Below, piece after piece: positions 16,801 through 40,282 of a DNA stretch of 40,858 bases; the stretch's first letter is position 1, and every line of letters starts with the position of its first letter. The notes under the pieces were generated by a model. The model saw nothing but the letters and a program-made list of their open reading frames with translations. It was not told the DNA's origin and searched no databases. Source of the stretch: a virus. The position numbers were made by a program, and so were the translations under genes. The stretch is taken from UHGV virus genome UHGV-0055581; one strand, 5' to 3'.

Positions 16801-16860
16801 ATCCCGAAACAGTTCGCAGGTAATAGTTAGAGCCTGCATAACGGTTTCGTGATTTTTTAT
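16801..16860 (+). terminator. tR' terminator (end of the short lambda 6S-type late leader transcript)
   Basis: ATCCCGAAAC...GTTTCGTGAT hairpin followed by TTTTTTAT, matching lambda tR' with one stem mismatch. Confidence 0.75.
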
Positions 16861-31111: not shown

Positions 31112-32494
31112 TTGGCTACATGGCAACAGGCTGGTAATTCAGGCGCGCTTCTTGCCGGGTTAGGCGGCATGAACTCCAACGCTCCAAGAGCAAGTGATGC
31201 AGACGCCACGCTTGCATACATTCGACAGAATAACGAGATGGAGCGTTCAGGACGTAATAACGTTGGCTTGCAGGCTTTGCAGGGCATTTCATCTGTCATG
31301 GATATGTATAAGCAGATGGATCAGCAGAAGCGACAGCAAGAGTTTCAGCAGGCTTATGCTGATGCATATACATCTGGTGACCGCGATGCAATGCGAAAAC
31401 TGGCATCACAGTATCCTGAGCAGTTTGACGCTGTAAGAAACGGCATGAAATTTGTCGATGAAGACCAGCGTTCCACTGTCGGCACACTGGCAGCAAGTGC
31501 CAGACTGGCAGCTTCATCTCCAGAAGCCATGATGTCATGGTTGCAGAACAACTCATCTGAGCTTACTCGTGCCGGAGTAGACCCTCTGGATGTGGCGAAA
31601 ATGTATCAGCAGAATCCTTCAGGATTTGGTGAGTTTGTTGATCACCTTGGGATGGCTGCTCTTGGTCCGATTGATTACTTCAATGTTCAGGACAAGATGG
31701 CTGTTCGTGAAATTGACCGAGGCAGGCTGGCAGAGACAATCCGCAGCAATCAGGCTGGTGAAGCACTTCAGGCGAGAGGGCAAAACCTTTCCTATCAGTC
31801 AGCAATGACTGGACACGGACTTGCAGCAGAAAGACTGGCACTTGATAAGCAGAAATTCGGTTTTGAAGTACAACAGGCACAAAAGAAGGCCGATGAACTT
31901 ATTAATGCTGCGCCAAAACTATCCGTGAACATGGAAAAGGCTATAGAAAAATCAGCAGGTGATGCGGCAGCTAGTCGTAATGCTGCCGATTCAATGACAA
32001 CGCTTGCTGACACGCTGGAGAAGGAGAAGCCAACTCCTGGTTTGTTCGGTAACGCTGAAAATATGTTCACTAAGCTTACGGGGCAAGATAACTACCTCCG
32101 AGATATGCGGATTAGATTCAACCAACTAGCCAATGCGCAGGCAACCAAGCTTCTCCCTCCCGGCCCTGCATCAGATAAGGATATTGAGTTTGCAAGGAAA
32201 GGCATTCCAAGCGAAACGGATAATCCAATGGTCATGGCTCGATGGTTAAGGGGTATGGCAAAAATGGAAAGTAATAACGCGAAGTTCAACGAGTTTAGGT
32301 CAGAGTGGATGAGTGCAAACGGCAGCCCAGGACAATCTGATCGCAACCGAAACATCATGGGGATGGATGTTAAGAAGGGTGAATCATTGAACTCTGCGGC
32401 AAAACGTTTTCTTTCCTCAAGTTATGGCGATAGCCAACCTCAACAGCAATTGTCCGATGACGAATTAATTAGCAAATATCTCGGAGGGCAGTAA
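31112..32494 (+). CDS. Ejection protein (P22 gp20-like)
   Basis: 460 aa; TTG start with GGAGG RBS 6 nt upstream; conserved order. Confidence 0.7.
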
Positions 32495-34605
32495 TGGCCT
32501 ATAGTCGTGAACAGTTGATGACGGCGTTAAGGAATGCTGATGCTGCCGGCGATACTGAGGGAGCACGTCGCATTGCTCAGATGCTGTCTTCTGGTGATCA
32601 ATCCACTCAAAACCAATCGCAGCCAGAAGAACAATCTCTGGTAGGAAAAGCCACTGACTGGCTCACTGGTGGTCAAAGCGCAGGGCAAATTGCAGAACAG
32701 GCTGGCCGTGGTCTGGTAAACATACCATTTGACGTGTTACAGGGTGGTGCAAGCCTGATTAATGCAATCAGTCAGGGGCTTGGTGGTCCCAAGGTTTTGG
32801 ATGATGTCTATCGTCCAGTCGATCGACCGACAGACCCTTACGCGCAAGTCGGTGAAACAATTGGTGGGTATCTCCTGCCAATTGGCACAGCGGCAAAAGC
32901 TGCTGGAGCGCCAGCAAAGCTCGCTGGAGATATCGGTTCCGCAGGAAACATGATTGCAGGTTCTCTTGCTGATGCTGCAAATCAGGAGGGAGACTTTGCA
33001 CAAAATGCTGCCATTAACGGTGGTATCAATATTGGTGCTCAAGGCGTTCTTTCAGGTGTCGGGCGCGTTATTGCGCCAAGGGTTTCACAGGCTCTTGGTG
33101 GTGCAGCACTGAATTCTGCTAATGATGTTTCCAGGATGGCAAAGTCAGGTGCTGGGCGTCAGTCAATTGCCAGTCAGGCCGCTAATGTGTCCGAAGATGT
33201 AGCAAAAGCGGCTGAGTCTGCTGGAATTGATATAAACGCATTAACACCAGGAATGCGATCTGGAAGTCGTGGAATTGCACAAGCCGAAGGCGCATTGGCA
33301 TCAACACCAGGAATTGTTCAGGACGCCCATCAGGCAGCATTTGACGAAATATCATCAAAGTTAAGTCGAAACCTTGATGAATTTGGGGCCGCATCTGGAA
33401 CGGCATCAGAAAAAAGTGCGGCTATAAAACAAAGGATTCTTCAAAATCTTGATCAGATGAAGGATGCCGAGCGCGCGGCATGGGATGACGTGCGGTCAAC
33501 GATGCCAAATCAAAAAGCAAGAATGCTAAATGGTAATGCCGTTATTCAGGCAGAGCGATCTGCTGGCATACCGCTTACTCCTGAAATGAAACAGTTTGTT
33601 CAGGCAAACAATCAAGGTGGAGTAACATTTGATGGCATGAAAGCATGGAGAGCGAAATTTGCTGATGCGGAGCAAAAATATAAGCGTAGCGGAGAGGCAA
33701 ATGCGGCAAGGAGAGCAGGGGAAATACGCCGGGCAATTACTGATGATATGCGCACAATGGCGGAAAACGGCGGATTTCTTGATGACTGGCAAAAAGCTAA
33801 TGATCTGTCTAAAGCGAGGTTATCAGCACAAGAGAGTGCAGAGTCTGTTTTCGGGCGTGATTTGGCAACAGATGCACTGATTACGAATGGAGTAAAATCC
33901 CTTCAATCATCGTCAGCTAAAGGTCTTAATGGCCCTGCTGGATTCCATTCTATGATCCGCGCGCTGCCAGAATCAGAGCGTGTTCCTGCTATATCATCAA
34001 TGTTGCAGGATGCTATCTCGCATGGTGTACGTGGTGGTAAATCTGATGCAGCAGGAATTAACCATATCGCAGGGATACTTACCCCACAAAATGTAAAAGC
34101 CATTAGCAGATATTCCTCAGAACTTGGAAGAATTGCTGATGCATATGGCACTCTTGCAAGAGCAGCAGTGAAGCCTCAGCAGTATATTGAAAGAACAGGG
34201 AGAACTGCCAATGTGCTACGCGATCTGGATGCTGGTTTATCCAACGTCACATCAACAGTGTTAAATGCAATTGCCAACTCAACATCAGGTGCCATTGTTG
34301 GTGGAGCAGGAGGGGGCATTGCAGGCGCTGCCGCAGGTGCTTTAGTTGGCGCCGGGTTAAAAGGTGCTGTATCTAAAATTGCCACCACGCGTAGCGGTCG
34401 ATATGCGATAGAGAAAGCAGTTCAGGAAGCCACGAAAGCAGTAAGAGCTGGCGGAAGTAAAGAAGCATTAGCGGCGGCGGAACGCAGATTTATGGCAAAT
34501 AAAGCCGCCGTAAAAGCAATACGTGATGCAGTTGGAAACGAAGAGTTCAATCGCTTAGCGAGGGCTGGCATTGTAGCGTCGCTAAGCGGAATGGCACAGG
34601 AGTAA
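32494..34605 (+). CDS. Ejection protein (P22 gp16-like), longer than the P22 protein I recall
   Basis: 703 aa; TAATG overlap with upstream gene; Ala/Gly-rich; conserved order. Confidence 0.7.
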
Positions 34606-34977
34606 TTAATCATCCATGGATGGATTGAGCTTATCTCGTGTTGATGTGGCGATTTGTCCTACATTCCTAAGCCAAGATTTCAAATCCTTGATATTGTCAT
34701 TGATTTCATGAATATCTTCTTTTTTTAATCTGTTAATATTATTCTCAATAATTTCAATGGATTGCTCAATATCAGATATAGTGAATGATAGTTTGTTCTT
34801 CTCATCTTTTATTGAGTTTTTAAGTGCTTCGTTCTCAGTCTTGAGGTCAGATATCTTTTGTTTTAAAGATGCCAGTTGGTACTGAACCACAATGAGTGCG
34901 ATAGCTATCACGATAACTGTTGTATACACACCAACCTCCTTAGTTTTGCGCAGGATACCAGATGAAATGGTCTTCAA
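34606..34977 (-). CDS. Membrane-anchored coiled-coil protein, candidate superinfection-exclusion factor (sieA position)
   Basis: 123 aa; N-terminal TM helix (VYTTVIVIAIALIVV) then heptad coiled coil; strongly AT-rich; TTG start overlapping the stop of the upstream Mnt-like gene; no good SD. Confidence 0.5.
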   Translation of the reverse strand: MKTISSGILRKTKEVGVYTTVIVIAIALIVVQYQLASLKQKISDLKTENEALKNSIKDEKNKLSFTISDIEQSIEIIENNINRLKKEDIHEINDNIKDLKSWLRNVGQIATSTRDKLNPSMDD

Positions 34978-35357
34978 AACTGGATGTCTTCAGCATCATC
35001 GCCAAAAACATTTTTATATGCATCTTGCCTTAAGCTCCTGAGAGCTTGATACATTTGCGAATGAGAACTGATGCTATCTAGTAAGTAGAAAATTGCTTTG
35101 ACTAGCTCATTCTCCCACCGCTCAAACTCTTCTTTGTTTGATGGCCTGTTCCCGGAGAGGTTTGAGTAAATCTTCATAATCCTGGAGTTATCAACCTCAG
35201 CAGGCACCGGAGACTTCAATGCATCATCAATGATAAACACTAGTTCTGTATTCATTGATCTGCCGTTTTCCTTTGCTCTTAAGGCTATAGCATCCCGCAT
35301 TCCTGCCGGAAGCCTGATATTGAACCTATCCATTTCATGACTAGGGAACTTGCTCAT
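34974..35357 (-). CDS. Mnt-like ribbon-helix-helix repressor with extended C-terminal domain
   Basis: 127 aa; FNIRLPAGMRDAIALRAKENGRSMNTELVFIIDDALKSPVP resembles P22 Mnt FNFRMPMEVREKLKFRAEANGRSMNSELLQIVQDALSKPSPV (recollection); divergent from arc. Confidence 0.65.
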   Translation of the reverse strand: MSKFPSHEMDRFNIRLPAGMRDAIALRAKENGRSMNTELVFIIDDALKSPVPAEVDNSRIMKIYSNLSGNRPSNKEEFERWENELVKAIFYLLDSISSHSQMYQALRSLRQDAYKNVFGDDAEDIQF

Positions 35358-35413
35358 ATGACCTCAACGTAAAGATGTTCGCTAAACAATAGCACCAACT
35401 TGACATCAAAATA

Positions 35414-35453
35414 AATGATACCAACTTGGTTCTAGAACCAAGTTGGTATCATT
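35414..35453. promoter_or_regulatory. 40-bp perfect palindrome (putative operator) between the divergent mnt-like and arc genes
   Basis: AATGATACCAACTTGGTTCTAGAACCAAGTTGGTATCATT; a third half-site-like copy ACCAACTTG at 35393..35401 overlapping a TTGACA hexamer. Confidence 0.7.
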
Positions 35454-35469
35454 GTGGAGGGGATTACTT

Positions 35470-35643
35470 ATGAAAGATGTGCTTTACACAGGTCGTAAAA
35501 GTCAAAGTTTCCAGCTTCGTTTGCCAGCGCGAATGAAGGAGGAGATTAGACGTGTTGCTGAAATGGATGGAATTTCTATCAACTCTGCGATTGTGCAGCG
35601 ACTGGCTAAAAGCCTGAGAGAGGAAAGAGCTAATGCCCAGTAA
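35470..35643 (+). CDS. arc: Arc-like ribbon-helix-helix repressor
   Basis: 57 aa; FQLRLPARMKEEIRRVAEMDGISINSAIVQRL resembles P22 Arc FNLRWPREVLDLVRKVAEENGRSVNSEIYQRV (recollection); GGAGG RBS. Confidence 0.7.
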   Translation: MKDVLYTGRKSQSFQLRLPARMKEEIRRVAEMDGISINSAIVQRLAKSLREERANAQ

Positions 35644-36343
35644 AAATAGTGAAGCCCAGCAGTGCGCGAACACAAACTGGGCCTCTATGTCAGTAACCGT
35701 ATGCAAGGAAACTAACGTGAATATTGTAGCAAAATCAGATTACAACTTCCACGGAGTTGAGTTGGTGCCCACCCGTGATATGCATGGTGTTTGGTTTACA
35801 TCATCTAATATTGCATCTGCACTTAAATACGCAAATAGTCGTGCAGTAACAATGATTTATAACAAGTATAGCGATGAGTTTAGCGCCGGAATGACTCAGG
35901 TACTCGAAGTGAGTACCTCAGGAAATTATCGCAAAAAAGTGCGAGTTTTCTCACTACGCGGTGCCCACCTAATCGCGATGTTTGCTCGCACTCCGGTAGC
36001 CAAAGAGTTCCGCCGCTGGGTGCTGGATATTTTGGATCGGCAGGCAGAATGCTCACCGATTGCAAAACAGTTTACTGACGAAGAGCTGGTTAATCTCTGC
36101 TACTTACAATTGTGGATGGAGAAGAGTCAACAAATGTGCAAACACATCTACCCAGGAATGAAGCAAATTTGTTCTGAGCTTTCAGGAAGGATTTACGATA
36201 TCGCATATGAGACTCGCTATATGTCAGAAGAAACCAAGAAATCACTTCTTCGTGAAGTGAAGAATCTTGATACCAACAATTTTGTCGTAAAGAACGCTCA
36301 GCCAATGCTGGCAAAACTGCGCGGCGAGGAATGGATTCATTGA
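35633..36343 (+). CDS. ant: Antirepressor with Bro-N-type N-terminal domain
   Basis: 236 aa; N-terminal FHGVELVPTRDMHGVWFTSSNIASALKY...VFSLRGAHLIAMFARTPVAKEFRRWVLDIL resembles the Bro-N domain (recollection); overlaps the arc 3' end as in the P22 arc-ant operon. Confidence 0.65.
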   Translation: MPSKNSEAQQCANTNWASMSVTVCKETNVNIVAKSDYNFHGVELVPTRDMHGVWFTSSNIASALKYANSRAVTMIYNKYSDEFSAGMTQVLEVSTSGNYRKKVRVFSLRGAHLIAMFARTPVAKEFRRWVLDILDRQAECSPIAKQFTDEELVNLCYLQLWMEKSQQMCKHIYPGMKQICSELSGRIYDIAYETRYMSEETKKSLLREVKNLDTNNFVVKNAQPMLAKLRGEEWIH

Positions 36344-36431
36344 TTGGTGCGCCGGACGGCGCAAAAAGAAAACCGCCAGTGTGCTGCTGGCGGCCTATGT
36401 CACACCCTTACTACCACATAAGGAATGCCTA

Positions 36432-37160
36432 ATGACTTTTAAGAATGTAGCAAACATCGGATCCGTTGTCACGGATAAAACCATTGACAGCCAGCGCCTG
36501 CTTGAGATGGTCAATCATGCTCGTAGACAGTGCGGGGAAAAAGAAGTCCGCAATAACGACTTTATTGCACGCATTAAGGATGAACTTGAAGGTGAGCACT
36601 ACGAAATTTTCGTAGTTCAAAAATCAAACAAGACAAGTTCTGAAAAAGTTGTTATGTCAATTAAGCAAGCCCTTCGAGTGGCTGCTCGTGAATCTAAAGC
36701 TGTTCGCCGCTCACTGGTAGACCAACTTGAAAGTATGCAAGAAGCGCACATTAAAAGCGGTAAATCAGCGAGTGGACTTGTTGAGTATCGTCAAGCGCGA
36801 ACATTGAAAATGACGGTTGAAGCTGTTACCAATCTGTTCGATCTGATGCCAAATCTTGCGCCTGAGGCAAAGCAGACAGCGGCAGCAAGTATAATCAACC
36901 CGCTCGTTGGTTTTAATGCAATACCTCTTCCGGCAATAGAAGAGCATTACTACTCAGCAGGGGAGGTTGCAGAGCAGCTTGGAGTAACGGCCAACAAGAT
37001 TGGTCGCATTGCTAACGCAAACAACCTCAAAACTGAGCAGTACGGGAAGTTCTTCCTGGATAAATCGGCGCATTCCAGCAAACAGGTAGAGGCGTTTCGT
37101 TACAATTCTGAAGGCGTTAAAGCACTACAACACCTGCTACATGGCTCAAATGTGGCGTAA
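36432..37160 (+). CDS. Hypothetical protein (242 aa) downstream of ant
   Basis: ATG with AAGGAA RBS; no confident family; upstream in-frame extension to 36381 is possible. Confidence 0.5.
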   Translation: MTFKNVANIGSVVTDKTIDSQRLLEMVNHARRQCGEKEVRNNDFIARIKDELEGEHYEIFVVQKSNKTSSEKVVMSIKQALRVAARESKAVRRSLVDQLESMQEAHIKSGKSASGLVEYRQARTLKMTVEAVTNLFDLMPNLAPEAKQTAAASIINPLVGFNAIPLPAIEEHYYSAGEVAEQLGVTANKIGRIANANNLKTEQYGKFFLDKSAHSSKQVEAFRYNSEGVKALQHLLHGSNVA

Positions 37161-37175
37161 CATTTTATAATGAAA

Positions 37176-37206
37176 ACTAAACCCGCTTAATCGCGGGTTT
37201 TTTCTT
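37176..37206 (+). terminator. Rho-independent terminator (possibly bidirectional)
   Basis: AACCCGC-TTAATC-GCGGGTT hairpin followed by TTTTTCTTT. Confidence 0.7.
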
Positions 37207-37444
37207 TCCTTAGAATTTCAGCCGCAACTTCTTTTACTCGTTCCGAGATTAATGAGGCCAGCCTCTCTTCTTCATCACGATACCCGCTTACAGGTGATGG
37301 TTTGGAGAGTGATTCTTCCATCGTAGCCACAATTTCGGAATTGATAGACCTGTTATTCATTTTTGCACGCTGCTTAATCTTAGCGTGCAACTCGTGTGTA
37401 AGCCTCAAGTGGAACTGCGCCTCATCGTATTTGCTGTACATCAT
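37187..37444 (-). CDS. mnt: Mnt-family repressor (second copy, P22 Mnt-like length)
   Basis: 85 aa; FHLRLTHELHAKIKQRAKMNNRSINSEIVATMEESLSKPSPVSGYRDEEERLA resembles P22 Mnt by recollection; start at the internal Met of the longer ORF. Confidence 0.7.
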   Translation of the reverse strand: MMYSKYDEAQFHLRLTHELHAKIKQRAKMNNRSINSEIVATMEESLSKPSPVSGYRDEEERLASLISERVKEVAAEILRKEKTRD

Positions 37445-37576
37445 CAATGCCTCACCAAATGGGTGGAATGGCATCGTAAAACCTACTGTACAAATCAACA
37501 ATCGTACCGTTTCGGTATGTAACAAATGCCAACCGTAGCCATGCTGCGGCGATTCCTTGTATCTGGAGCAAATTAA

Positions 37577-40282
37577 ATGACAGACATTACAGCCAATGTT
37601 GTAGTGAGCATGCCTTCGCAACTCTTCACTATGGCGCGTTCTTTTAAAGCCGTAGCTAATGGCAAAATTTATATCGGTAAAATTGACACTGACCCGGTAA
37701 ATCCTGATAACCAGATTCAGGTCTATGTTGGGAACGAAGATGGTTCTCACGTTCCTGTTGCACAGCCAATCGTCATCAATGCCGCTGGGTATCCAGTATA
37801 TAACGGACAGATTGCCAAATTCGTAACCGTGCAAGGCCATTCTATGGCTGTTTACGATGCTTATGGCACTCAGCAGTTTTATTTCCCAAATGTATTAAAA
37901 TACGATCCAGATCAGTTTGGCCCAGACTTCAAAGAGCAGTTATCTCAATCAGGAGCATACATTAATGATGATTCAAAAGGTGATGCATTAATTGGGGTAA
38001 GGCAGCCATTTACCGGGGCTGTAACTATAACTCAGCATGAAAACAATGCTCTTTTCTTAAATGTAAAACAATTCGGAGCAATTGGGGATGGGAAATATCA
38101 TCCATTATCTGAGAGGTTTTCTTCAATTTCTGAAGCAAAATCCTTATATCCTTTTGTTGACTCATTATCTCAGTCAATAGACTGGGCCGCGTGGCAAGCT
38201 GCCCTTAACACAGGAAAGGTTATTTATGGTACTGATAATGCGTATGTAATAACGGATACGTTAACACCTGTTTCTGGTGGTGGGATAATTGGTCTTGGTG
38301 TGGGCAAATGGGTCTCCGGATATACTGCAACATTTGCTCCTGATATTACCACAGGGACCACATTCCTGATGTACGGGGTAGGAAATAAAAAATATACTGT
38401 AGATTGTGTTTCTAATATGGATGTTAGTGGTGGTGTGGTTTCTAATCCATCTTCCGAAGACCCGTATACAACAACAGCACCTGCGTCATCATATGATTTA
38501 TTGGATTTTACTAACGGTGATGCTAATGGGACTACAAGAGCCACGCTTAAACCATTCTCTGCCGCAATATTGATGCCTGAGACAGGATGTGTTCGCCTTG
38601 AGAACTTTCGTGTTGTTCCATATTTCAATGGGCTGGATGGTTATAAAGACATTGCAAATACCGGTCTTGGCGATGAGTGGGATGTAGGTATTTGGTCACG
38701 TGCGTCTTTTGGCAATGAATACCGCAATTTGCAGGTGGTTGGATACTGGCGCAAGACGGCACTTTTAAAAACGAACATTCCTGTATCTGGCACGCTGGCT
38801 GCTCAGGGCGAGGATGAAAACTATTATCACTGTAGATTCCAGGGATTCAAGGGTGTTTCGATCCGCGCCAATGATGTATTCCGAATTACAGCGGTAACGT
38901 CCAGCACTATCGAAATCCCATGGTCAGCAAGCCACACCTTCGAAACGTCCGGAGTTTTAAGATCTGGAGGCAGGAATTTCACTTATTCAGGATTATCCGT
39001 ATCCGGTGATAAGTTAGTATTTACTGGAGTGTCTAACGCTTCTGAGGCAACAGTAGGTTCTACTATACGGCGAAATGACATAGATAACTTTGGTATGGCG
39101 GGAACGCAATTTTTCGATTGCTACATTACCAGCCTGTATCACCACACACATCTGCTTGCCACATCGCAATACCTGTCTCAACCATTCAGCCGACCATCAG
39201 AGTGTATGGAGGTTTCAGGGGAACCAGTTCGCGGTGTACAGGTACATGCAGGAACCATTCAGGGATGGGATGATGTTCTTATTCATCTGCATGACTGTGG
39301 AAATATGAACTTTTACAGTACATATTTCGAAAGCCAGCAAGCATATGTAACTATAAATGGTGGTAATGCTATTGGTTATGGAGCACGTATGATAGCTTCC
39401 CGGCAATCAACAAGCTCATTACCATATGCAGCAGGGAATACACGAGTGCTTAGAATGGTCGGGTGCTCTGAAGGCAATGGCGTTGACTGGGGTCCTGTAT
39501 TTAACAACTATACAGGAGGAAGATATAATTCTGGAGACGGTGTATTTAACCCCCGCGATGCATTTATAGACCATAAATCTCTTCCTGAGCAGTCAGGAGG
39601 TGAGTCAAGACTCGTATCACAAAAAGGAAATGCCAGAGTAGTATGTGGTGTTGGTAAAACTGTACTGCTTGGACCAACGTCAGGAGATTGTAATTTACAG
39701 AGTAATACCGGAAGTTTAAATATTAGAAGTGGGATAAGAGTAAGAGTCGGTCACGCTGATGGAACAGACTGGTGGTTGGCAGATGCTAATAAAATAGCTC
39801 CTGTTGATGATAATGTTAAAGCTATTGGACAGCCATCAAACAGATGCTCTGTTATCTATGCAGGAACCGGGTCAATCAATACATCAGATGAAACTCTTAA
39901 AACAAGATATGATATTCTTAATGCAGAGCGTGATGCCGCTATTGAAATAAAGTCAGTCATCTATAAATTTAAATTTAATGACTCAATTAATCACAAAGGA
40001 ATTGAGTCGTCCAGGTATCATTTTGGCGTTGGCGCTCAAACCGTAGGGGATATTCTTAGAAAGCATGGTTTAAATCTTGAGCAATATGCTTTTTGGTGTT
40101 ACGATGAATGGCCTGACGTATGGGATGAAGAGGTGATAACTGAAGAGAGCACAGATCCTGATACAGGTGAGAAAATTTATTCTCAATATAAAACAGGAGA
40201 TATGATTCTTGTAAAAAAAGCAGGAGGACGCTACGGAATTCGTTATGACGAATTGGCTATGTTTATATTAATGGCAATGTAG
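37577..40282 (+). CDS. Tailspike: P22-type head-binding N-terminal domain, divergent receptor-binding domain, C-terminal chaperone-like region
   Basis: N-terminal ~110 aa ([34 protein letters not shown]...VLKYDPDQ) match the P22 tailspike by recollection; remainder AT-rich and unrelated; C-terminus has an SDETLK motif like the cleavage-site motif of endosialidase-type chaperone domains. Confidence 0.9.

Follow-up and report, generated by a model that had tools for sequence, protein, structure and literature searches.

Two Mnt-family repressor genes at the tailspike-proximal locus of a P22-like prophage probably belong to two juxtaposed control modules

Two genes for Mnt-like repressors flank an arc-ant operon in UHGV-0055581, a P22-like (Lederbergvirus) prophage of E. 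coli type, and the question raised by this locus is whether the two repressors act in one control circuit or belong to different systems that have become neighbours. The window analysed is the whole 40,858-nt sequence of this virus genome. The locus lies between gene 16 and the tailspike gene, a slot known in P22-like phages as the 'ant moron' or immI region; its content varies greatly, with ten types among sixteen genomes, and ST64T and ST104 keep mnt alone in it (PMC2629481). A preliminary description had read the region as a single circuit with a doubled Mnt around arc-ant. The comparative data give instead two modules with separate origins and independent occurrence. It is probable that the region consists of two independent control modules side by side, reflecting phage mosaicism and not a new two-repressor circuit, because the Mnt-like repressor of 85 amino acids (aa; Mnt85) occurs without ant and the antirepressor cassette occurs without Mnt85. 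The components are known: an orphan mnt of the ST64T type, and a ribbon-helix-helix (RHH)-Arc-Ant cassette of the Oslo/55989 type, here extended by a P1-Ant-like gene.

The cassette (module A, 34974-37160) comprises the gene of a 127-aa RHH protein (Mnt127; 34974-35357, minus strand) and a divergent plus-strand operon encoding a 57-aa Arc-like protein (Arc57; 35470-35643), a 236-aa Bro-N/P22AR_C Ant (35633-36343) and a 242-aa protein (Ant242; 36432-37160). Module B (37187-37576) comprises mnt85 on the minus strand (37187-37444) and the 132-bp spacer that separates it from the plus-strand gene of a 901-aa tailspike with a P22 head-binding domain (37577-40282). Between ant242 and mnt85, a bidirectional intrinsic terminator (37179-37200) serves both the cassette operon, read rightward, and mnt85, read leftward; it extends into the final codons of mnt85. 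The open reading frames (ORFs), the 242-aa gene and the terminator were all found where they had been described, with the 127-aa RHH gene divergent from arc-ant. The Pfam Arc/RHH domain (PF03869) was detected in all three small regulators, with E-values of 1e-16 for Mnt127, 8e-12 for Arc57 and 3e-15 for Mnt85. The mnt127 and mnt85 genes are both intact and both encode RHH proteins, so that neither is a pseudogene. They had been taken for paralogs of a doubled locus, but with a mutual identity of only 26% they are not local duplicates.

Each module was found without the other in further genomes. Relatives of Mnt85 were recovered at 80 loci in a scan of IMG/VR (64-100% identity). In 79 of these, the mnt gene and a tailspike head-binding domain are encoded divergently, the 80th locus ending at a contig edge, and about 25 of the 80 have no antirepressor homologue in the flank, several of them with gene 16 directly next. 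The mnt-tailspike layout is likewise present in Sf101, VSe13 and ST64T. Seventeen viral contigs, obtained in a scan for the Ant242 family, carry an RHH gene divergent from an operon of a Bro-N ant and ant242, usually preceded by an Arc57-like gene, and in none of them is Mnt85 or a tailspike encoded close by. Because these contigs carry the cassette without Mnt85, Ant242 is assigned to the arc-ant operon and not to mnt85. In addition, the 127-aa repressor gene, the operator block and the Arc57 gene have counterparts of 75% DNA identity in the ES18-like siphovirus Oslo, within its tail operon. Among 5426 complete E. coli genomes, the mnt85 unit was present in 592 and Ant242 in 360; several complete E. 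coli genomes, that of strain 55989 among them, have arrangements with three Arc-family genes.

The solved structure of Mnt (1mnt) was the best PDB sequence match of both repressors, to very different extents. For Mnt85 the alignment spanned residues 3-74 (E 9e-16) and took in both the SKPSPVxGYR linker and the C-terminal tetramerisation helix. Mnt85 is 45% identical to P22 Mnt; its description as a canonical-length Mnt on the minus strand before the tailspike was borne out, as it is a full-length and intact Mnt homologue. The alignment of Mnt127 covered residues 10-53 alone (E 2e-8) and did not extend beyond the RHH domain. Mnt127 matched phrog_3178 (E 3e-59) and has full-length homologues across Enterobacterales. 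In its AlphaFold2 model (predicted local distance difference test score, pLDDT, 78), the RHH domain is followed by predicted helices at residues 58-69 and 75-121; a fold search with the model matched the RHH domain alone (AmrZ, Arc) and gave nothing significant for the C-terminal helices. Because the alignment stops at the RHH domain, which is followed by ~75 aa of a helical domain that is not of Mnt type, Mnt127 is an Arc/Mnt-superfamily RHH repressor and not an Mnt orthologue. Its helical domain presumably serves oligomerisation, as the unrelated domain of Mnt does. The proposal that Mnt85 and Mnt127 form heteromers gained no positive evidence, their C-terminal parts being unrelated (an Mnt-type helix in the former, helices of 12 and 47 residues in the latter). 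The alternative proposal of two operator specificities agrees with our data: the reading residues are R-N-R in Mnt127 and Q-H-R in Mnt85, and each repressor has its own palindromic site beside its own promoter. An operator-like palindrome was found in each of the spacers 35358-35469 and 37445-37576. The single palindromic operator originally listed, at 35414-35453, is real and perfect, and a second operator-like palindrome, at 37504-37518, has to be added to it.

The mnt85-tailspike spacer was used as a phylogenetic footprint. Its predicted leftward promoter, Pmnt85 (37473-37501, minus strand; -35 TTGTTG at 37501-37496, a 17-nt spacer, and -10 TACGAT at 37478-37473), aligns with P22 Pmnt (TTGAGA / TATCAT), and the TTG of the -35 element (TTGTxx) and the -10 element (TAyGAT) are kept across three diverged spacer types. 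Directly upstream of the -35 element, where P22 Omnt sits, is the palindrome GTACCGTTTCGGTAT (GTACC-GTTTC-GGTAT, 37504-37518), which is referred to as Omnt85. The sequence at this position co-varies with the beta-strand reading residues of the Mnt protein in four head/site pairs: the head QFHLR of the window Mnt85 is found with GTACC-N5-GGTAy, PQFNLR of the ST64T type with AGACCAC(C/T)GTGGTCT, PHFNFR of P22 with AGGTCCACGGTGGACCT, and PQFKLR with GAACCACGGTGGTTC. No second copy of Omnt85 was found in the 40.8-kb window, the other matches, at 16801 and 25692, being at chance level. Mnt85 is most likely autoregulated at Omnt85. A further palindrome, CACC-N5-GGTG (37453-37465), overlaps the mnt85 Shine-Dalgarno sequence and has equivalents in the same place in P22 (CACT..AGTG) and in the ST64T type (CACTT..AAGTG); it may form a hairpin at the 5' end of the mRNA or act as a second site for a protein.

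Module B is a P22-type immI region from which arc-sar-ant has been deleted, with the operator now adjoining the tailspike leader, because the spacer matches P22 at both ends and because one related locus, L071, retains a remnant of ant. The left part of the spacer aligns with P22 Pmnt/Omnt and its right third with the sequence that follows the ant terminator (T_ant) in P22 and epsilon34, while in L071 the 3' remnant of ant and T_ant still lie between mnt and the tailspike gene. The tailspike leader (37527-37576, plus strand), homologous to the P22/epsilon34 sequence after the ant terminator, contains a hairpin at 37533-37549 (CCGTAG / CTGCGG) just before the tailspike Shine-Dalgarno sequence, with no T-run after it. 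The pairing of this hairpin survives sequence change in relatives (CCGCAG/CTGTGG, CGCAT/ATGTG), and its counterpart is located downstream of the ant terminator in P22 and epsilon34. On the tailspike side of mnt85, arc-sar-ant is missing, mnt85 is divergent from the tailspike gene and not from arc-ant, and the hexamers at the P22 Pant positions are degenerate (ATGGCA / ACAAAT). No rightward sigma-70 promoter passed in 37445-37576, nor was there a conserved candidate. The mnt85 ORF itself is intact in 80 of 80 loci, and the ratio of nonsynonymous to synonymous substitution rates (dN/dS) is 0.02 against both VSe13 and L055, with synonymous sites near saturation; because of these values, Mnt85 does not appear to be a relic.

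In module A, Arc57 is encoded by the first gene of the rightward operon, which overlaps the start of ant by 11 nt. Like P22 Arc, it is a small RHH protein whose gene stands right after the rightward promoter and is coupled to ant, and it is 82-100% identical across cassettes whose divergent repressor and operator vary. The 236-aa Ant matched phrog_245 'anti-repressor Ant' (E 2e-63). It contains a Bro-N domain (PF02498, E 2e-10) and a P22AR_C domain (PF10548, E 1.5e-12, over the gathering score), with no P22AR_N domain, and so differs from P22 Ant in its N-domain. The left repressor of the cassette is exchangeable: many relatives have the same RHH head joined to another C-terminal domain, and phage JEP4 has a C2-like helix-turn-helix (HTH) repressor instead. 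In JEP4 (locus L001, 2775-3689), as in E. coli H54 and H55, the C2-like HTH gene and a small divergent gene replace the RHH/Arc pair; in relatives of this type the P22AR_C part of Ant, Ant242 and mnt85 are unchanged, and the joint lies inside ant, near window position 35943.

The view that the 242-aa protein is a second antirepressor-type protein was strengthened by its phrog_1726 match, by its likeness to the N-domain of P1/P7 Ant and by fold matches of KilAC/Rha type. Over its full length Ant242 falls into phrog_1726 'anti-repressor' (PHROGs, E 1.5e-100). Its residues 14-106 are 60-69% identical to Ant1/Ant2 of the P1 family (RCS47, JL22, P7; E 1e-25 to 6e-32), a likeness limited to the N-domain; P7/P1 Ant2 is a characterised antirepressor. 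More than 2000 proteins matched Ant242 at E <= 1e-5, and the 120 best of them come from Enterobacterales; almost every one is labelled 'hypothetical', and none carries a Pfam domain. Ant242 itself gave no Pfam match at E <= 0.1, KilAC (Pfam ANT) included, and no match in a PDB sequence search at E <= 10. The AlphaFold2 model consists of an N-domain, two long linker helices and, at the C-terminus, a winged-helix domain of predicted KilAC-like fold. Foldseek matched the model to viral models annotated as KilAC, Rha or antirepressor (E 1e-9 to 1e-5) with low whole-chain template modelling scores (TM-scores), and the structural search of the PDB gave weak MerR-like winged-helix matches only. The possibility that ant242 is the C-terminal part of a split ant was rejected, as the protein resembles neither P22 Ant (hhalign probability 0.2%) nor the Bro-N Ant (BLASTP E 0.28). 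A likeness, seen by eye, of the first ~ten Ant242 codons to the P22 ant codons that carry Psar had no statistical support and is not claimed. Ant242 thus appears to represent an independent antirepressor-type family, encoded by the third gene of the cassette operon. In loci L013 and L050 an insertion of ~1.3 kb interrupts ant242, and a transposase of the IS3 family of insertion sequences is annotated at this place in E. coli H53.

The spacer between mnt127 and the Arc57 gene carries the cassette operator and promoters. A block, ACAATAGCACCAACTTGACA (35386-35405), is invariant in the window, MDR_56, MB06231 and Oslo, with diverged flanks, and contains a third ACCAACTTG half-site. We infer that it provides a leftward extended -10 element (TGcTATTGT, minus strand, 35394-35386) and a rightward -35 element (TTGACA, 35400-35405). 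The operator region proper (35414-35453) is a 40-bp perfect palindrome (20+20 nt, 100% complementary) with two ACCAA-N-TTGGT subsites and the family-wide core TTGGTTCTAGAACCAA. Across cassettes, the reading head RFNIR is found with TTGGTTCTAGAACCAA and the head RFTVR with ATGACATCA-N3-TGATGTCAT. That core and head change together while Arc57 stays constant suggests that the central core is the site of the divergent repressor.

The palindrome of the window is a private allele. A common left arm, AATGGTGTTAAATTGGTTCT, is present in 59 of 60 related loci and gives the rightward promoter TTGACA-16-TGtTAAATT, whose hexamers are kept in Oslo and others despite a diverged spacer. The window carries substitutions at 35418, 35420, 35421, 35422 and 35425 relative to all 59 of these loci, and all five equal the complement of the right arm copied onto the left arm, which results in the perfect 40-mer. 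They also convert the -10 element TGtTAAATT into ACcCAACTT (hexamer 35422-35427, now CAACTT), a loss seen in the window alone. Neither IMG/VR nor the GTDB representative genomes contained the exact 40-mer, and the nearest E. coli relatives, MDR_56 and MB06231, have the common allele. The perfect palindrome looks like a quasipalindrome template-switch mutation, a kind of mutagenesis known to occur in E. coli (PMC7202029), although 35414-35453 could also be an assembly artefact. Because the five substitutions remove the -10/TG element, the rightward promoter of the ant operon is probably silenced or much weakened in this allele, which possibly also forms a tighter symmetric operator and may hold an extra leftward element (TGgTATCAT) facing mnt127.

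A candidate antisense unit lies on the minus strand at 36362-36472, across the start of ant242. Its predicted promoter (GTGACA at 36472-36467, a 17-nt spacer, and TGcTACATT with the -10 hexamer at 36449-36444) is located within ant242 codons 5-14 (36472-36444), and its terminator is in the upstream spacer, with a hairpin at 36396-36370 and a T-run to ~36362. With a predicted start at ~36437, the predicted RNA is ~75 nt long, complementary to the Shine-Dalgarno sequence and start codon of ant242, and has a predicted folding energy of -26.8 kcal/mol (z = -2.2). Over a range of 42-100% protein identity, 48 of 54 distinct upstream regions keep the unit. Both promoter hexamers, the TG and the 17-nt spacing are constant, while the spacer and the encoded residues vary; the terminator is constant amid unrelated flanks, with compensatory double changes at four stem pairs. 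In an Rfam scan of 34000-38000 at E <= 1, no sar (RF00262) or C4 (RF01695) was found, and chance terminator-like matches (RyhB, isrK) fell on the 37179-37200 hairpin only; the positive controls scored 97.8 bits (sar on P22) and 69.6 bits (C4 on P7). The unit therefore appears to be sar-like in layout without being a member of the sar family.

Two juxtaposed modules would operate as follows. In the lysogen, Mnt127, together with the hkcB-like protein encoded next to it, and Mnt85 would be made from separate leftward promoters, each acting on its own operator. By analogy with P22, Mnt127 would keep the cassette operon off in the lysogen, Arc57 would exert negative feedback on the operon after infection, and the two Ant-type proteins would inactivate C2-type prophage repressors. 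A constitutive antisense RNA of ~75 nt would, on the same analogy, block translation of ant242 from residual or read-through transcripts; read-through is expected because the cassette is in sense orientation inside the late operon. The only recognisable site of Mnt85 in the window is its own, so the two repressors would read different operators and need not interact. Our preferred guess is that Mnt85 provides trans-acting immunity against relatives that have ant under the same operator.

Several points weigh against this interpretation. Every regulatory step in it is drawn from sequence and from the P22 analogy. The strong selection on mnt without an adjacent ant is not explained by two independent modules, and no relative with a Q-H-R Mnt before an intact ant, which would be a cognate target for trans-immunity, was found. 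For Ant242, the model is of moderate quality (pLDDT 70) and its fold matches have low TM-scores over the whole chain. Covariation is only suggestive as a means of assigning the cassette subsites to Arc57 or Mnt127. ACC-N5-GGT has nine occurrences in the 40.8 kb, of which four are in the two repressor spacers (35420, 35437, 37454, 37506), and a CC-N5-GG core is common to the Mnt-type operators of relatives; the shared ACC-N5-GGT core may leave room for cross-recognition between the modules.

One alternative, although unlikely, is that the tailspike-linked mnt, which is strongly selected even where antirepressor genes are absent, is not a leftover but a conserved device that has its own job. This could be gating of transcription into the tailspike gene, trans-immunity between related prophages, or binding to the ACC-N5-GGT subsites of the cassette. 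If the last were true, such cross-binding in composite loci would put foreign antirepressors under the control of the resident Mnt.

It is also unlikely that Mnt85 specifically controls the tailspike, its operator gating a Pant-derived promoter or late read-through into gene 9 and thereby setting tailspike dosage. The mnt-tailspike adjacency is invariant, the spacer is conserved, and purifying selection is strong even without ant; moreover, the ant moron of P22 is thought to affect the late transcription that reaches gene 9, possibly via Mnt and Arc (PMC2629481). The hexamers at the Pant positions (ATGGCA / ACAAAT), however, have no frame that keeps both A2 and T6, and a rightward sigma-70 promoter was neither found nor conserved in the spacer. 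Nor is a bound RHH tetramer expected to halt antiterminated late transcription.

We give little chance to an integrated two-Mnt circuit, in which both repressors would control arc-ant-ant242 in two layers, by two specificities or as a hetero-oligomer. Such a circuit would accord with the position of mnt127 and mnt85 on the flanks of the operon, with the presence of ACC-N5-GGT in both operator regions, with the two mismatches that separate the cassette subsites (ATACC-AACTT-GGTTC) from the Omnt85 arms (GTACC/GGTAC), and with the recurrence of the three-RHH combination in E. coli prophages, including that of 55989. It is at odds with the occurrence of Mnt85 and the cassette apart from each other and with cassette operators that are identical with or without a nearby Mnt85 (Oslo versus P22-like loci). 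Moreover, no copy of Omnt85 is present in or near the operon, the C-terminal domains of the two repressors are unrelated, and mnt85 is convergent with the operon, with a terminator between them. Finally, that Mnt85 is a functionless, decaying relic of a deleted immI region is strongly disfavoured: arc, sar and ant are lost, the Pant hexamers have decayed and phiKp_30 has a truncated mnt copy, but the ORF is intact at all 80 loci with a dN/dS of 0.02, and conservation extends to Pmnt, to the Shine-Dalgarno sequence and to the operator, the latter tracking the reading head.

The juxtaposition of two modules is also apparent from comparison with known systems. Module B shares with the immI regions of P22 and epsilon34 the slot between gene 16 and gene 9, a full-length Mnt homologue, a Pmnt that can be aligned, and an operator where Omnt sits, and with epsilon34 also a terminator that overlaps the 3' end of mnt. 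The cassette follows the logic of P22 immI, with a divergent repressor, Arc first, an antirepressor, and a predicted antisense RNA over an antirepressor ribosome-binding site. In contrast to P22, mnt85 is not followed by arc-ant; the operon is located behind mnt85 and is paired with an RHH repressor different from Mnt85. Two genes of antirepressor type are present, the second of which is the target of the predicted antisense RNA, and this RNA is unrelated to sar in sequence or in Rfam. The ant moron of ST64T and ST104 (PMC2629481) agrees with module B in spacer layout, Pmnt, operator position and tailspike leader. ST64T differs in having a Q-N-R head with AGACCACCGTGGTCT, where the window has Q-H-R with GTACC-N5-GGTAy, and the window has a foreign antirepressor cassette added on the far side of mnt.

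The closest counterparts of the cassette are in vB_SosS_Oslo (gp17-gp19) and the prophage of E. coli 55989, with 84% identity in the divergent repressor and 88% in Arc, and with the same promoter/operator block, ACAATAGCACCAACTTGACA ... TTGGTTCTAGAACCAAGTTGGTATCATT. In Oslo, unlike the window, the cassette is in a siphovirus tail operon and has a longer, P22-like Ant, no Ant242 homologue or Mnt85 was detected adjacent to it, the palindrome is imperfect and the -10 element is intact. The P1 immI region (Ant1/Ant2 and c4 of P1/P7) resembles the window in the N-part of Ant242 and in antisense RNA control, which is predicted here. The C-terminal two thirds are different, and the window RNA would be a cis-antisense RNA across the ribosome-binding site, as sar is, whereas c4 acts on upstream target sites; no Rfam C4 match was obtained.

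To the left of the cassette are the gene of a gene-16-like DNA transfer protein (32494-34605, plus strand) and an hkcB-like membrane/coiled-coil gene (34606-34929, minus strand). The product of the latter matched phrog_5962 (E 7e-59 over residues 17-123), has a transmembrane segment and a coiled coil, and is 99% identical to epsilon34 gp14, an hkcB homologue. The longest ORF reaches TTG 34977; the start is most likely GTG 34929, behind AAGGAGG, which gives 107 aa as in epsilon34 gp14. A gap of 44 nt without a terminator separates this gene from the end of mnt127, which precedes it on the minus strand, and the two probably share a transcript. It is maybe a prophage-expressed membrane protein in the slot of P22 sieA.

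Several relatives have rearrangements around mnt85. In four loci (L019, L035, L038 and L085), a 166-aa ORF with an HNH-endonuclease-like motif lies between mnt85 and the tailspike gene, and the spacer is ~700 bp. Klebsiella phage phiKp_30 (locus L008) has a copy of window positions 36322-37384 in its early region, between 47-bp direct repeats at 2955-3001 and 4062-4108; this fragment takes in the antisense unit and ant242 as well as the terminator and the 3' two thirds of mnt85, and its Mnt is without the DNA-binding beta-strand. We rejected phiKp_30 as proof that Ant242 and Mnt85 travel together, since the fragment is repeat-flanked and its Mnt truncated.

The C-terminus of the tailspike contains an endosialidase chaperone domain (Peptidase_S74), with a short match to the end of an endosialidase catalytic-domain profile, which suggests that its receptor-binding part is specific for a capsule or polysaccharide. 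In the P22-like prophage BTP1, the prophage-expressed leftward RNA STnc6030, which is antisense to the tailspike gene and extends into the 3' end of a DNA-injection gene, acts in superinfection exclusion (PMC7067206). STnc6030 is a lysogen-active leftward transcript that originates about where Pmnt85 sits, and BTP1 has no mnt ORF there (PMC7067206).

Antirepressor modules decide whether and by whom a prophage is induced, and they mediate the cross-talk of co-resident prophages. The separation of an apparent two-Mnt locus into two modules provides a reading rule for similar loci in E. coli and Salmonella prophages. It also brings forward three new leads: a conserved, sar-like antisense unit ahead of a large antirepressor-type family in which nearly all proteins are labelled hypothetical; an orphan mnt with strong, unexplained conservation; and a natural operator/promoter allele, apparently corrected from a quasipalindrome, that would be expected to silence an antirepressor operon.

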